This document shows positions 24,137-31,487 of a stretch of DNA of 64,000 nt, piece after piece. The position numbers and the translations under genes are program-made. The stretch is from an uncultured delta proteobacterium. Its GTDB lineage: Bacteria > Desulfobacterota > Binatia > UBA9968. Below the pieces are notes generated by a model. It saw only the letters and a program-made list of their open reading frames with translations. It ran no database searches and was not told the DNA's origin. The stretch lies in assembly GCA_963816145.1 (NCBI GenBank), contig CAWFJP010000013.1, forward strand, positions 96,001 to 160,000, in the 5' to 3' direction. Every line of letters starts with the position of its first letter. Positions within the stretch are counted from its first letter, which is position 1.

Positions 24137-24766
24137 ATGATGACGCTTTTTTTCAGTCCTGGTGCTTGCTCTTTGGCTTCGCATATCGGTCTCGAAGAAA
24201 CCGGCGCGCCCTATGAGCTCAAACCGATCTTGCTGACCAAGGGGCAGCAGCGCACCGCGGATTATCTGAAGATCAACCCGCGCGGTAAAGTGCCGGCGCT
24301 CAGCGTCGACGGCAAGATCCTGGTCGAGAACACCGGCATACTCACATACCTGGCGCGGAGGTTCCCGGACAAAAAGCTGCTGCCGGCCGATCCTGCCGAG
24401 GAAGGGCGCTGTGTCGGTACCATGTGCTGGTTCTCCAGTGTCGTCCATCCGTCGTACCAGCGCTTCCATCGCCCCGAGCGTTTCGCCGACAGCGAAGTGG
24501 CGCACGCCGCGGTCAAGGAAAACGGCAAGAAGTCGTTTTGGGCCAATCTCCAGGAGATCGACTCGATGATCCAGGCGAACGGCTGGGTCATGGGCAAAGA
24601 TTTCACGGTCGTCGACGGCTACGCGCTGGTCTTCTACGGCTGGGCGAGCCGCAGCGGCATGCCGGTGACAGAGCTCAAATCGTACACGGCCTGGCGCGAG
24701 CGCATGATGCAACGACCGACAGTCAAGAAGAGTGTCGAGAGTGAGGAAAGCGTTTCGACGTCATAG
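24137..24766 (+). CDS. Glutathione S-transferase (beta class-like)
   Basis: FSPGACSLASHI, INPRGKVPAL; GGAGG RBS. Confidence 0.92.
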   Translation: MMTLFFSPGACSLASHIGLEETGAPYELKPILLTKGQQRTADYLKINPRGKVPALSVDGKILVENTGILTYLARRFPDKKLLPADPAEEGRCVGTMCWFSSVVHPSYQRFHRPERFADSEVAHAAVKENGKKSFWANLQEIDSMIQANGWVMGKDFTVVDGYALVFYGWASRSGMPVTELKSYTAWRERMMQRPTVKKSVESEESVSTS

Positions 24767-24898
24767 TTGGGTAGCGTTTTCTCCACCTCGACGTCCGTTA
24801 AGAAATTGGCCGGGATTGCCAGATCGTCGAATTGCTTGAGTCTGACGCAGTTTGCCGGCGCAGGTTCGACGGCGATAGGCCCAAACGGAGGAAGCAAA

Positions 24899-25969
24899 AT
24901 GGCTCGGCGCAGCTGGCCGGTTTTATTCGCGGCGGTGATCGCTTCGGGTTTGTTTTTAGCAAGCCGGCCGGTGTTCGCCCAGGAGCCATTTTACAAAGGC
25001 AAGACCGTTCGCTTGCTGGTTAATTATCCTGCCGGAGGAGCCACCGATGTGGTCGCCAGGCTGGTCTCGAGATATTTGGGCAAGCATCTCGCCGGCAATC
25101 CTACGGTCGCGGTTCAGAACATGCCCGGCGGCGGGGGCAATGTCGGCGCCAACTATGTGTACGAGGTCGCCAGTGCCGACGGCTTGACCGTCGGAGTTTT
25201 CTCCGGCGGCTATTTGCCGCAGATCCTCGGCGGCGCCGGCGTGCGCTTTGATCTCAACAAAATGCCGATGATCGCGGGGGTCGGCGAGACCTCGGTGGTG
25301 TACATTCGCGCCGATACCGGGGTCAAAGGCCCCGGTGAAATTCTCAAACCGGCCAAGCCGATCGTCATCGGCGGATTCACCCGCGAGAGCAACAAAGATC
25401 TGGCGTTGCGGATGGCGCTCGATCTTCTCGGCGTGCCTTACCGTTACGTGACCGGCTACGCCGGCGAAGCCGACCTCCGGCTGGCCGTCCAGCGGGGCGA
25501 AATCAATTACACTTCCGAGGGTCTTACCGGCTATACCATGGGCGGCGCCTTGATGGCGCGAGAAGGTGTCGTGGTGCCGATCTATCAAGACGGTTTGACC
25601 GGACCCGATGGAGAGATCGTTCGCGATCTACGCGCCGACCTGCCGACGTTCAAGGAATTCTTTCGAGCGGCGAAGAAAGCCGATTTCTCTGGGCCTTTGG
25701 CCGACGCCTTCAAGATTTCCGGAGCGGTACGTAGTCTCGGCAGGTTTGTCGTCGCGCCACCGAAGACGCCGGCGACGGCAATCGAGACGCTGCATAAAGG
25801 TTTTCGCGAGACCTTTGACGATCCGGAATTCAAGGCGGAGGCGGAACGCGTGTTGCGATTCCAATTGGTGAGTTTTGTCGGCGAGGACGCGGCCAAGGTT
25901 AACACTGCGGTGTTTCGCGCCGCTACCGGACCGGTGCGGGAAGCCCTGCGAAAGATGACTCAGGAGTAA
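24899..25969 (+). CDS. TctC/Bug-like substrate-binding protein
   Basis: Start MARRS after GGAGG; FYKGKTVRLLVNYPAGGATD, GNPTVAVQNMPGGGG. Confidence 0.85.
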   Translation: MARRSWPVLFAAVIASGLFLASRPVFAQEPFYKGKTVRLLVNYPAGGATDVVARLVSRYLGKHLAGNPTVAVQNMPGGGGNVGANYVYEVASADGLTVGVFSGGYLPQILGGAGVRFDLNKMPMIAGVGETSVVYIRADTGVKGPGEILKPAKPIVIGGFTRESNKDLALRMALDLLGVPYRYVTGYAGEADLRLAVQRGEINYTSEGLTGYTMGGALMAREGVVVPIYQDGLTGPDGEIVRDLRADLPTFKEFFRAAKKADFSGPLADAFKISGAVRSLGRFVVAPPKTPATAIETLHKGFRETFDDPEFKAEAERVLRFQLVSFVGEDAAKVNTAVFRAATGPVREALRKMTQE

Positions 25970-26014
25970 GCAGCGCACGAAAGTATCTTATCTCGGAATG
26001 TTGACGCCGGTTGA

Positions 26015-26065
26015 GAGATTGACTCGACGATCCAACGCGCCGGCTGGGTCATGGGTCAAGAGTTC
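26015..26065 (+). pseudogene. Short relic of the upstream GST gene
   Basis: Encodes EIDSTIQRAGWVMGQEF versus GST EIDSMIQANGWVMGKDF (24554-24604); 40 of 51 nt identical by manual count. Confidence 0.6.
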
Positions 26066-26171
26066 AAATTTTGGCTCCATGATCTACCGGGCTCGATTTA
26101 TAGCGGTTCATCGGCAGGATCACGGCAAAAGACTTGCCGCAGGCAGGAAGTCTCATATCTCGGAGGTGCAT

Positions 26172-27272
26172 ATGAAACGCGACAAGCCCAAATGGCGGGT
26201 GTTTCGGCAAATATCTCTTCGCTCCGCATTTGGCGCGCCACTGCTCGGTCTTTGCTTTGATCTCTTCATGGCCGGCATTGCTTTTCCGCAAGCTTCTTTC
26301 TTCCAGGGGAAAACCGTTACCATCCTTGAGAGTAGCGCGCCAGGGGGAGTCGGCAGCATGCGGACCAAAGCCGTTGTGCCTTTTCTCCAGAAGTATATTC
26401 CGGGAAATCCCACCATTGTGATGCAGCACATGGACGGCGGCGGCGGACGCAAGGCGGCCAATCACATTTATCAATCGGTCCGTCCGGACGGCCTGACCAT
26501 TGGCCGTATGTCGACGCCATTCGTGATGCATCCCATTCTCGGAGAGAGTGGAATTCTCTATGACATCGATAAAGTGAGCTATCTGGGCACCAGCTATAGC
26601 GGCGGCTACCATGTTTTTTTCACGCGCCGGGAATCGGGCCTCGACAGTCTAGAGAAGCTTCGCGCGGCTTCAGGTTTGAGAATCGGTTCCCAGTCGGTCG
26701 GGCACCTGATCTACATCTCCGGTCGAATGTTTGCGTATCTGATCGGCCTAAAACAACCGAGATTCGTCACCGGGTACAACTCACCCGAACTCGATGTCGC
26801 CATCGAGCAGGGCGAGATCGACACTAGGTCAACCGTGGCAGACGCACTCCTGCACGAGAAACCTCAATGGGTCGACAAAGCACAGATGGACTTCCACAGT
26901 ATCATCGAGGTTCCGAAAGGGCGGAAACACAGCCACCCGCACTTTGCCAGACTCCCTGACATCGAGAGCTTTGCGAGTTCGGCCATGGACCGGAAACTCA
27001 TCGGGCTGTACCGGGCGTTCATCGGCAGCGGCAACCCGCTAATCCTGCCTCCCGGCACCCCGAAAGACCGAGTCCGCATCCTGCAGGAAGCGATGCGCAA
27101 GACTTATCGAGACCCCGAGTTTGGCAAGGAGTATGCAAAGCTCACCGGCCTAAAGGCTGAACCGCAAATGCCGGAGGAACTGGAGCAAACGATCAGAGAT
27201 ATGCCGCGCGACCGGGAAGCCGTAGAGCTGTTCAAAAAACTCACCGGCCCGGACCCGCTACCGCAGAGGTAA
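26172..27272 (+). CDS. TctC/Bug-like substrate-binding protein
   Basis: Start MKRDKP after GGAGG; FFQGKTVTI, IPGNPTIV, VRPDGLTIG, PPGTPKDRV. Confidence 0.85.
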   Translation: MKRDKPKWRVFRQISLRSAFGAPLLGLCFDLFMAGIAFPQASFFQGKTVTILESSAPGGVGSMRTKAVVPFLQKYIPGNPTIVMQHMDGGGGRKAANHIYQSVRPDGLTIGRMSTPFVMHPILGESGILYDIDKVSYLGTSYSGGYHVFFTRRESGLDSLEKLRAASGLRIGSQSVGHLIYISGRMFAYLIGLKQPRFVTGYNSPELDVAIEQGEIDTRSTVADALLHEKPQWVDKAQMDFHSIIEVPKGRKHSHPHFARLPDIESFASSAMDRKLIGLYRAFIGSGNPLILPPGTPKDRVRILQEAMRKTYRDPEFGKEYAKLTGLKAEPQMPEELEQTIRDMPRDREAVELFKKLTGPDPLPQR

Positions 27273-27385
27273 AGAGCCGATAACTTTCACCCGGTGGTGT
27301 ATTCAGTCATGCGGAAGAAACCCAAAGCGCGCGAAGAAACGATTTGTTTTCTGCGGCCATCAGCGCGCGACGAGGAGGAACAAAT

Positions 27386-27943
27386 ATGACCGCCGAACCC
27401 GAAGGCCCTCGCGTAGGGACCATAGGCCCGGAGTTTCACATCGCCACGGCTGCTGGCTGGCTGCCGCTGCGTCAGTTGGCCGCGCAATATAAGAAACTGG
27501 TTCTCACGACCCAAGATAGTTACCGATATCATCCAAACTGAGCCGCCAGCATGGCTGCTTCGTTGAAGCAGGATTATGCAAAAATTCTCAAGGCGGGAGC
27601 GGACCTCGTCATGATCTCGCCCGATTCTCTTGACGAGCATCGTCAATATGGGCTGACACTCTTCGGCGAGGAACTCCCCTATCTGTTTGTTTCCGACAGC
27701 GACCTCGACATAGCGCGGCGCTACGGCCTGCTCCGTGGCGAAGAGCATCACCACGGCGGTTTTTATTATCGCTCGCTCTGGGTACTGGATCGTGACGCTG
27801 TTATTGCGCACAAGAGCGTTCCCTGGGACGGCAACGCGCAGGTTGAAGAGTACCTGAAATTATTCACACTCATTGGCAGCGAACCGGGAGAATGGCGAGC
27901 CACCTGTGGCTTGAGACAGCCAGGAAATTTGCCTGCGAGTTGA
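27386..27943 (+). CDS. Peroxiredoxin/redoxin (AhpC-TSA-like) selenoprotein (HPNU, Sec52)
   Basis: ATG after GAGGAGG. ORFs 27344..27541 and 27551..27943 are in frame across TGA 27539-27541. VGTIGPEF (Prx N-terminal G..AP.F-like), then ISPDS...H, LPYLFVSD, ARRYGL, RSLWVLD. Hairpin downstream. Confidence 0.8.
27555..27571 (+). promoter_or_regulatory. Candidate bacterial SECIS element
   Basis: CUGCUUC-GUU-GAAGCAG: 7-bp stem, G first in the loop, 13 nt after the UGA. Confidence 0.65.
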
Positions 27944-28008
27944 AATCGAGGGGACAAGGCAATCCCGCCTTACACGTTTGAGGGCGTGTGCGTAGCCGGG
28001 CAAATACC

Positions 28009-28683
28009 ATGTGGACATATATCGGCCAGAAGCGGCCGCCTTTCGCCATAACACCGGGGCTCGGACAGGAGTCGGTGTGGGATTATCCGCGGCCGCCAAA
28101 ACTGATTGCTGAGCAGCGGCGCATTGTCGTTCGGCGCGGCGATCTGCTGATCGCCGACTCGCGTGAAAGTTATCGCATTCTGGAGACCGCGGCGCCGCCG
28201 ACTTTTTACATTCCACCGCGCGATGTCCATGTCGAACTGCTGCAGCCGTTTCCCGGCACGTCGATTTGCGAATGGAAAGGCGCGGCGCAGTACTGGACAT
28301 TGGCAATGGCGACATCGGCGCGGGAAGCGATCGGCTGGAGTTATCCGCAGGCGCAAGCGCCGTACGGCGCGATTGCAGATTTCTTTTCCTTCTATCCCGG
28401 CCGTGTCGAGTGTTTCGTCGACGGCGAGCGCGTGCGCCCGCAGCCGGGTTATTTCTACGGCGGTTGGATAACTGATGAAATTGTCGGGCCTTGGAAGGGG
28501 GAGCCGGGGACGGTTTGGCAAAGAAGTGCCGCATGGCGGGACAACGTCCCGTGGTTACTCGTTGGAGCGGCTGCTTGTTATCTTGTCAGGCTTACTTGCG
28601 GCAATCGCCTTGAGCACCTCTTCGGCCACTACCCGGTGACCCGCTTCGTTGTAATGGCCGAAAACACCAAAAGGAAACAGTGA
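28009..28683 (+). CDS. DUF427 (NTP_transf_9) family protein, copy 1, with aberrant C-terminal extension
   Basis: ESVWDYPRPP, LETAAPPTFYIP, CEWKG.A.YW, WSYP motifs. Diverges from copy 2 after GEPGT (28513) and runs antisense into the next gene. Confidence 0.75.
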   Translation: MWTYIGQKRPPFAITPGLGQESVWDYPRPPKLIAEQRRIVVRRGDLLIADSRESYRILETAAPPTFYIPPRDVHVELLQPFPGTSICEWKGAAQYWTLAMATSAREAIGWSYPQAQAPYGAIADFFSFYPGRVECFVDGERVRPQPGYFYGGWITDEIVGPWKGEPGTVWQRSAAWRDNVPWLLVGAAACYLVRLTCGNRLEHLFGHYPVTRFVVMAENTKRKQ

Positions 28684-30971: not shown

Positions 30972-31487
30972 ATGTGGGTTTATACCGGCCAGAAGCGGCC
31001 GCCTTTCGCCATAACACCGAGGCTCGGACAGGAGTCGGTGTGGGATTATCCGCGGCCGCCAAAACTGATTGCTGAGCAGCGGCGCATTGTCGTTCGGCGC
31101 GGCGATCTGCTGATCGCCGACTCGCGTGAAAGTTATCGCATTCTGGAGACCGCGGCGCCGCCGACTTTTTACATTCCACCGCGCGATGTCCATGTCGAAC
31201 TGCTGCAGCCGTTTCCTGGCACGTCGATTTGCGAATGGAAAGGCGCGGCGAAGTATTGGACATTGGCAATGCCGATATCGGGGCGGCAAGCGATCGGCTG
31301 GAGTTATCCGAAAGCGCGGCCGCCATACGGCGCGATTGCAGATTTCTTTTCCTTCTATCCCGGTCGCGTCGAGTGTTTCGTCGACGGCGAGCGGGTGCGC
31401 CCGCAACCGGGTTATTTCTACGGCGGTTGGATAACTGATGAAATTGTCGGGCCTTGGAAGGGGGAGCCGGGGACGGAAGGGTGGTAG
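30972..31487 (+). CDS. DUF427 family protein, copy 2 (intact)
   Basis: Same motifs as copy 1; ends GPWKGEPGTEGW-stop. Confidence 0.85.
   Translation: MWVYTGQKRPPFAITPRLGQESVWDYPRPPKLIAEQRRIVVRRGDLLIADSRESYRILETAAPPTFYIPPRDVHVELLQPFPGTSICEWKGAAKYWTLAMPISGRQAIGWSYPKARPPYGAIADFFSFYPGRVECFVDGERVRPQPGYFYGGWITDEIVGPWKGEPGTEGW

Follow-up and report, generated by a model that had tools for sequence, protein, structure and literature searches.

In a 64,000-nt stretch of DNA from an uncultured delta proteobacterium of the Binatia (GenBank assembly GCA_963816145.1, contig CAWFJP010000013.1, positions 96,001 to 160,000; hereafter the window), we identified what appears to be a selenoprotein gene at positions 27386-27943 that current annotations divide in two. 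We consider it probable, at roughly 0.8, that this region is one gene for a 185-residue protein with the AhpC/TSA fold, in which UGA codon 52 is translated as selenocysteine (Sec) at the peroxidatic position and which likely performs peroxidase chemistry. A single open reading frame (ORF), a conserved UGA, a hairpin of the selenocysteine insertion sequence (SECIS) type, the Sec machinery of the genome and a peroxiredoxin (Prx) fold together argue that the product is a genuine selenoprotein. That the protein works as a peroxidase, with Cys174 as resolving residue and a part for His49 in catalysis, is proposed from established peroxiredoxin chemistry.

The internal UGA and the hairpin behind it

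The frame of the window reads ...KLVLTTQDSYRYHPN-TGA(27539-27541)-AASMAASLKQDY... and stays open until the TGA at 27941-27943. The residues directly before the internal TGA are QDSYRYHPN, and from Sec52 on the protein reads U-A-A-S. A mechanical ORF list divides the gene into 27344..27541 and 27551..27943. A first-pass annotation, made from the letters of the window, had described a ribosome-binding site (RBS) and ATG at 27386, an in-frame TGA, a hairpin 13 nt behind it and an internal ATG at 27551 that lacks an RBS, and we found every one of these features where it had placed them. A GGAG, GAGG or AGGA core precedes the homologous start in 56 of the 70 loci with enough upstream sequence, and no AGGAGG-like sequence stands before the internal ATG of the window.

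DNA of relatives came from genome contigs (five loci) and metagenome contigs (61 loci), and the Sec codon was counted in the 61 loci that cover it (L004-L064). Because the search peptide had been back-translated with Cys over this site, the pattern could not favour TGA. The codon is TGA in 60 loci and GGA in one, and there are no TAA, TAG or Cys codons, a degree of conservation well above what chance would give. As an internal control, the homologous terminal stop was examined in the 57 loci that reach it, where TGA occurs 41 times and TAA and TAG eight times each. In 49 of the 61 loci, an ATG is found at a distance of exactly 51 codons before the Sec codon. The codon of Met56, which is the internal ATG of the window, is ATA, CTG, ATT or GTC in nine of 71 loci and GTG in two, in a set that includes redundant genome loci. 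Moreover, an independent metagenome contig (run X2) spans 27392-28000 with one differing letter, none being listed at the TGA, so that the TGA is not an assembly error.

Our conservation analysis was based on 34 unique full-length family members. Among these, the median pairwise ratio of nonsynonymous to synonymous change (dN/dS) is 0.23 for the 50 codons before the TGA and 0.13 downstream, and the upstream variability is highest at third codon positions (0.30, compared with 0.15 at first and 0.13 at second positions). These patterns show purifying selection on the 50 codons upstream of the TGA, and so the upstream part is translated. Databases give a different picture of the gene. The best 120 of 371 database relatives are all 125-139 aa long and comprise only the part after Met56, which indicates that the TGA is taken as a stop by gene callers throughout. 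Among 1.84 billion cluster representatives, a scan also revealed N-terminal fragments on their own, with residue 51 as their last, and one database fragment carries the NCBI name “redoxin domain-containing protein”. Among the public copies listed, the annotation is truncated to about 130 aa and named “peroxiredoxin” or “redoxin domain”. Due to this truncation, and since no NCBIfam model flags the protein, the whole family is annotated wrongly in metagenomes from soil, wetland and sediment.

The hairpin behind the UGA is a perfect 17-nt structure (CTGCTTC and GAAGCAG around a GTT loop). Folded alone it has an energy of -7.6 kcal/mol (z -3.55), and one of 200 shuffled sequences was equally stable. 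As given in the legend to Figure 2 of a 2026 review of selenoproteins, the bacterial SECIS consensus comprises a loop of 3-9 nt, a stem of 4-16 bp, a G in the first two loop positions, a UGA-to-loop distance of 16-37 nt and a minimum free energy (MFE) of -7.5 kcal/mol or lower. With its GUU loop, 7-bp stem and spacing of 20 nt, the window hairpin lies within all constraints listed in that legend, and within that on energy by a narrow margin. In a wider context the fold energy is ordinary (z -0.81 for 71 nt and z -0.88 for 42 nt), and the support for the hairpin therefore comes from conservation rather than from energy. Synonymous diversity among the 34 unique DNAs is 0 at codons +5 to +10 (GCT GCT TCG TTG AAG CAG), which correspond to the hairpin and form the lowest six-codon window of the gene, while the mean over its degenerate codons is 0.25. 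No other stretch of the gene is free of synonymous variation. Rare variants in the wider set are G-U wobbles or changes of basal pairs. This invariance at synonymous sites provides the strongest evidence for a putative SECIS element.

The genome that contains the window (7.8 Mb in 31 contigs) carries tRNA-Sec, SelA, SelB and SelD, the last with an in-frame TGA of its own, and all of them are located on contig C30. The genes selA, selB and selD adjoin each other (G000:C30:562714-566803; together with the tRNA-Sec entry, L001, L002 and L089), and tRNA-Sec lies about 10 kb beyond them (G000:C30:576761-576855). SelA was found in 65 of the 71 genomes of the window's family, a tally that includes G1143 and G1133 (flagged unpublished and used for no other result), and in all five genomes holding L004-L008.

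A peroxiredoxin fold with an altered active site

For all fold and domain searches, U was read as C. The Pfam domain AhpC-TSA (PF00578) matches residues 24-142, across the TGA, with an E-value of 4e-10 and 40.1 bits against a cut-off of 26, and apart from PF00578 only PF08534 matches at E up to 1. Searched by themselves, the first 51 residues gave no meaningful Pfam match. A phmmer search of the Protein Data Bank (PDB) aligned residues 8-159 continuously with Aeropyrum pernix Prx and Aquifex AhpC2. In this alignment YHPNU lies over FTPVC, which puts U52 on Cys50 of the Aeropyrum Prx, the residue mutated in the C50S entries. Asp44 stands at the Pro position of the motif and His49 at the Thr position. 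Furthermore, YYRSLWVLD lies over VRGVFIVD, which holds the catalytic Arg, and R129 is aligned with that Arg. An AlphaFold2 model based on a 42-row alignment (pLDDT 86.9, pTM 0.84) shows a helix from residue 50 and a disordered C-terminal tail (pLDDT 54 over residues 171-180 and under 50 over 175-185). Foldseek matches to this model in the PDB are headed exclusively by peroxiredoxins (best E 1.1e-11, TM 0.70). Together, alignment and model place Sec52 at the peroxidatic position, where helix alpha2 begins, in a Prx fold.

The residues around this position differ from those of canonical peroxiredoxins and are nearly invariant within the family. D44, S45, Y46, R47, H49 and N51 are each present in 34/34 members and U52 in 33, with Gly in the remaining one. 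The Thr or Ser at -3, which is regarded as essential to the Prx site and found in all described peroxiredoxins, is replaced by His in all 34 members and in a close Cys-form relative (P0122), whereas seven canonical relatives have Thr (five) or Gly (two). Likewise, the Pro required at the start of the motif gives way to Asp (Asp44 in the window protein) in 34/34. Compared with the nearest canonical relatives (about 30% identity, T-P-x-C), the family shows a two-residue Tyr-Arg insertion before His49 and a four-residue insertion which makes an E-H-x-H loop. This loop, E120-H-x-H-G-G125, is conserved in all 34 members and in P0122 and is gapped in six of seven distant canonical Prx; in the window protein it is part of the segment EEHHHGG (residues 119-125). 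Three invariant His residues (49, 121 and 123) are specific for the family. Arg129 is kept in 33 of the 34 members and in 8/8 outgroup rows. Cys174, which lies within WRATCG, 122 residues after Sec, is the single Cys of the 185-residue protein and is found in 32 of the 34.

Most of what the first-pass annotation had proposed for this site was borne out. It had put U at the peroxidatic position, and the continuous alignment over residues 8-159 and the AhpC-TSA match across the TGA agree with this. The replacement of Thr by His at -3 extends to all full-length homologues and the Cys-form relative, and the EEHHHGG insert is real. The searches that it had suggested, with U read as C, returned AhpC-TSA and peroxiredoxin structures, and its question of whether the TGA aligns with Cys in homologues was answered by P0122 and all canonical relatives. 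Of its view of the C-terminal Cys, that this is the only one was confirmed, while a resolving function is plausible. Finally, its suggestion of a distinct subfamily is supported, and none of the contrary outcomes that it had named (a discontinuous alignment to a thioredoxin fold, homologues with neither Cys nor TGA at this codon, or the two halves occurring as independent genes) was observed.

The column of the Sec residue holds Cys in P0122 and in 7/7 canonical relatives. P0122 (216 aa, 50% identity, a singleton cluster) is the sole close Cys form that we found. It carries the motif YRFHRSC and keeps the His, the E-H-x-H-G-G loop, the Arg and the C-terminal Cys, and a search for further Cys forms with P0122 as query returned P0122 only. 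With a single close Cys form, the family is almost entirely Sec-bearing. Two fragments of about 130 aa, P0127 and P0130 (58% and 53% identity), resemble P0122 and start just past the active site; they may represent a second Sec-bearing subclade. This conserved, natural replacement of Thr by His, found almost only in company with Sec, makes it possible to ask directly in what way selenium loosens or alters what the Prx site requires.

Proposed mechanism and alternative readings

The Thr or Ser of PxxxT/SxxC normally forms hydrogen bonds to both the peroxidatic atom and the peroxide. A distance like that between Sec52 and Cys174 is typical of 2-Cys Prx. In the mechanism that we propose as the most likely, the hairpin would recruit SelB together with Sec-tRNA(Sec), so that UGA codon 52 is decoded as Sec. 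Sec52 stands beside the conserved Arg129, where helix alpha2 begins and where peroxiredoxins otherwise have their peroxidatic Cys. Its selenolate could attack a hydroperoxide to give a selenenic acid, which Cys174 of the flexible C-terminal tail might resolve to a selenenylsulfide, and a reductant of the thioredoxin or glutaredoxin type could finally reduce the latter. His49, perhaps with Asn51 and Arg47, might act as hydrogen-bond or proton partner in place of the Thr hydroxyl, in a site that has been rebuilt by Asp for Pro, the inserted Tyr-Arg, His49 for Thr/Ser and the E-H-x-H-G-G loop before Arg129. We also consider, more tentatively and with doubt prevailing, that the family is an essentially Sec-obligate lineage of the Prx fold in which the PxxxT/SxxC site was rebuilt around selenium. 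N-H donors from His and Asn, reminiscent of the site of glutathione peroxidase, would replace the Thr hydroxyl, or Sec and His would bind a metal or substrate. The hundreds of Sec-form clusters found, compared with one Cys-form cluster, are what suggests this possibility. If true, it would represent a catalytic solution which has not been described for any peroxiredoxin.

Several observations weigh against a selenoprotein with peroxidase chemistry. Both the Thr/Ser at -3 and the Pro at -7 are replaced, so that peroxidase activity cannot be assumed, and Cys174 is absent in 2/34 and Arg129 in 1/34 members. Among the loci, L018 has GGA (Gly) at the Sec codon (positions 1290-1292 of the locus), and L055 lacks 11 codons including the SECIS hairpin (around L055 1654-1700). 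These two and the frameshifted copies L007, L008 and G1173 (L087/L088) may be assembly errors or decaying alleles. The hairpin shows no significant base-pair covariation among 33 distinct sequences; its upper stem does not vary. In the lower stem one pair shows a compensatory change, in two sequences, but 11/33 are unpaired at that pair, and the covariation score is reached by 59/500 shuffles. The argument for an RNA element consequently rests on the invariance of synonymous sites. Searching 27000-28300 of the window against Rfam gave no match at E up to 10. The only transcript is one 257-nt contig from a soil metatranscriptome (27299-27555), which passes the TGA by 14 nt, less than the 31 nt of the bridging rule applied, and in which DNA carry-over is possible. 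Moreover, gene neighbours are not conserved across related loci, and hence no partner reductase is indicated.

Since Thr and Pro are both lost, a serious rival, although an unlikely one, holds that the product genuinely contains Sec and has the Prx fold but is no peroxidase. It would instead use a different substrate, for which a disulfide, a selenosulfide and an organic electrophile are candidates, or would bind a metal or metalloid via Sec and His. The exact placement of Sec at the peroxidatic position, the catalytic Arg in nearly all members, the 2-Cys-like spacing of the C-terminal Cys and the nearest structures, which are all peroxidases, speak for a peroxidase instead. In favour of another role, the residues of PxxxT/SxxC are not kept and His49, Asn51 and the E-H-x-H-G-G loop have been gained, with three invariant His that are specific for the family. 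The protein is also at most 25% identical to the other AhpC/TSA proteins of its genome, and many selenoproteins of the thioredoxin (Trx) fold in the catalogue of the 2026 review have unknown, non-peroxidase roles.

Two further explanations concern the codon itself. The TGA could be a plain stop, either within a decaying Prx pseudogene or between two genes for a 51-aa peptide and a 130-aa protein that starts at the ATG 27551, as the products of about 130 aa and the 51-aa N-terminal fragments listed by gene callers, one of them with an NCBI redoxin name, would suggest. This reading is already contradicted by the comparative data, and we regard it as highly improbable: the codon is almost always TGA and never TAA or TAG, unlike the true stop, the upstream part is under purifying selection, and Met56 is replaced by non-start codons in several loci and has no RBS before it. 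A 130-aa product would moreover be without the fold's first beta strands and its catalytic residue. Just as little speaks for a UGA that is read as another amino acid (e.g. Trp, Cys or Gly), by near-cognate decoding or through a changed code. Such decoding could be seen in the Gly codon of L018, but the genome holds the full Sec machinery, synonymous change is suppressed in the SECIS-type hairpin behind the codon, and the aligned residue in relatives is Cys, the usual partner of Sec in such alignments. Furthermore, TGA is the commonest true stop of the gene, which shows that the code is not reassigned. Decoding of UGA codon 52 as Sec thus remains our preferred reading.

Distribution, gene context and relation to known families

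Pfam AhpC-TSA gives 22 matches in the window genome, of which 12 have one in-frame TGA at the redox motif (11 besides the gene described here). Their motifs comprise TPGU (twice), TPTU, NPTU, W-U-x-x-C (four times), GUINC, AULPC and HPNU. So many Prx-type selenoproteins are unusual for one genome, and the identity of the HPNU protein to the other AhpC/TSA proteins in it does not exceed 25%. The TGA-bearing loci include L092-L095, L097, L101-L103, L106 and L107 (e.g. C3:93947-94327 and C12:111317-111709). One of them, L097 (G000:C18:154200-154574), has the motif LDFNPTU with Asn instead of Thr at -3 to the TGA and is a second non-canonical case. At L110 and L111 (G000:C4:418514-418896), the AhpC-TSA match is split into three pieces that lie in different frames, one with an internal TAG, probably because of an assembly error or because this is a pseudogene with frameshifts. 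With at least 12 AhpC/TSA genes that carry an in-frame UGA, the host lineage seems to harbour a rich and unexplored selenoproteome in a common soil group.

A scan of the class detected the gene in nine of 401 genomes, each time with one TGA within the match; in G1173 the match is in two pieces through a frameshift. All nine belong to the window's own family, in which eight of 63 other genomes have the gene, compared with 0/337 genomes in 19 other families. In a sample of the phylum, the window's own genome was the sole match among 401, and a scan centred on G401 gave two matches in 401 genomes, G401 itself and an unrelated canonical Prx (29% identity, no stop). Among the genomes scanned, the family is therefore confined to one bacterial family. 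Relatives are labelled Candidatus Binatia or “uncultured delta proteobacterium” metagenome-assembled genomes (MAGs), and 18 runs, one per study, from soil, wetland or sediment metagenomes contain no fewer than half of the words sampled from the stretch.

The features of the gene are summarized in Table 1. In the window, two DUF427 (PF04248) paralogues lie close together at 27988-28683 and 30972-31487, the first of them directly downstream of the selenoprotein gene. DUF427 is found downstream in only five related loci (L009, L010, L011, L013 and L067; 76-92% identical). Upstream, 24137-27272 encodes a GST, with matches to the N-terminal domain, and two weak TctC-like (Bug-type) solute-binding proteins that stay below the Pfam cut-off. 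A GST is also found beside the homologue in L040 and L066. DUF427, TctC-like and GST neighbours recur only where the neighbouring proteins are 76-100% identical, and contexts differ otherwise, with ornithine cyclodeaminase, PNPOx-like and solute-binding proteins and hydrolases (48 of 88 flanking ORFs, 25 loci). The mechanical ORF list also contains an antisense ORF of 174 codons (27287-27811, minus strand) that overlaps the selenoprotein gene. Similar antisense ORFs occur in GC-rich homologous loci, and there is no sign that this one is a gene.

Table 1. Positions in the window of the selenoprotein gene and its proposed functional elements
Feature	Position	Strand	Remark
Shine-Dalgarno sequence GAGGAGG	27372..27378	+	7 nt before ATG 27386; read directly
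Putative selenoprotein gene	27386..27943	+	185 codons and terminal TGA; AhpC/TSA-fold, peroxiredoxin-like; from translation
Active-site motif D44-S-Y-R-Y-H49-P-N-U52	27515..27541	+	replaces PxxxT/SxxC; from alignments
Proposed Sec codon UGA (residue 52)	27539..27541	+	peroxidatic position; 60 TGA and 1 GGA in 61 loci
Possible extended lower SECIS stem, weakly supported	27549..27579	+	MFE structure
Internal ATG (Met56), false start of gene callers	27551..27553	+	non-start codons in some loci
Putative SECIS core, 7-bp stem and GUU apical loop	27555..27571	+	13 nt after UGA
E120-H-H-H-G-G125 loop, insertion just before catalytic Arg	27743..27760	+	family consensus E-H-x-H-G-G
Arg129, conserved Prx active-site Arg	27770..27772	+	aligned to the arginine of Aeropyrum Prx VRGVFIVD
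Cys174, candidate resolving residue in flexible C-terminal tail	27905..27907	+	sole Cys of the protein
True stop TGA	27941..27943	+	homologous stop varies among loci

The 2026 review lists 119 selenoprotein families and subfamilies in its Table 1 and treats a domain that recurs with another Sec-related motif as a subfamily of its own. Its entries of the AhpC/TSA type are Prx (TxxU), a Prx-like thiol:disulfide oxidoreductase (UxxC/UxxU), a peroxiredoxin-like family protein (UxxS, cd02970), a redoxin family (UxxC) and Prx-SUH (CxxU, NF045827). The UxxS family corresponds to PF13911 in the available part of the table of a 2022 review. An AhpC/TSA subfamily with H-x-x-U is not among these 119 families, in which the sole HxxU entry is a sulfide:quinone reductase. 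Likewise, no AhpC/TSA selenoprotein with this motif appears in the accessible portion of the full-text literature on bacterial, Binatia, Olavius and groundwater selenoproteins, and no NCBIfam model covers the window protein.

The closest known system is Sec-Prx or PrxU (PF00578, PxxxTxxU; Eubacterium acidaminophilum PrxU, NF040737), which shares with the window gene the AhpC/TSA fold, a peroxidatic position occupied by Sec, the catalytic Arg and a SECIS that follows the UGA closely within the coding sequence. The window protein differs by His instead of Thr at -3 and Asp instead of Pro at the start of the motif PxxxTxxU, which the 2026 review calls “crucial”, as well as by the additional two-residue YR insertion and the E-H-x-H-G-G loop. 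It scores 14.7 bits against NF040737, for which the cut-off is 270. The best matches in both sequence and structure are the Prx6-type Prx of Aeropyrum pernix (PDB 2cv4, 3a2v and 2zct) and Aquifex AhpC2 (5ovq), with E 7e-7 by sequence over residues 8-159 and a Foldseek E of 1e-11 (TM 0.70). These proteins are only 20-24% identical, have Cys in FTPVC and are longer (220-250 residues) with a larger C-terminal domain.

Judged from the catalogue table alone, Prx-SUH resembles the window protein as a Prx-type selenoprotein with a residue other than Thr at -3 to Sec. However, this residue is Cys in Prx-SUH and His in the window protein, which does not match NF045827 at E up to 1, whereas canonical relatives do match this model. 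The Prx-like UxxC/UxxU proteins (PF00578) and the UxxS “AhpC/TSA family protein” (PF13911/cd02970) have the Trx/Prx-like fold in common with it, and its own U-A-A-S also fits the UxxS pattern. By our reading of the motifs, the W-U-x-x-C paralogues of the genome carry Sec three residues before the canonical Sec position of Prx, while the Sec of the window protein lies at the peroxidatic position itself; they are at most 25% identical to it. For the UxxS family, the window protein gave no match to PF13911 at E up to 1. Homology-based resources such as BSepDB, or the study of groundwater MAGs cited by the 2026 review, may already list members under “Prx”. Based on the missing matches to PF13911 and NF045827 and the low score against PrxU, we place the window protein as a new subfamily, or variant, of the Sec-peroxiredoxins.

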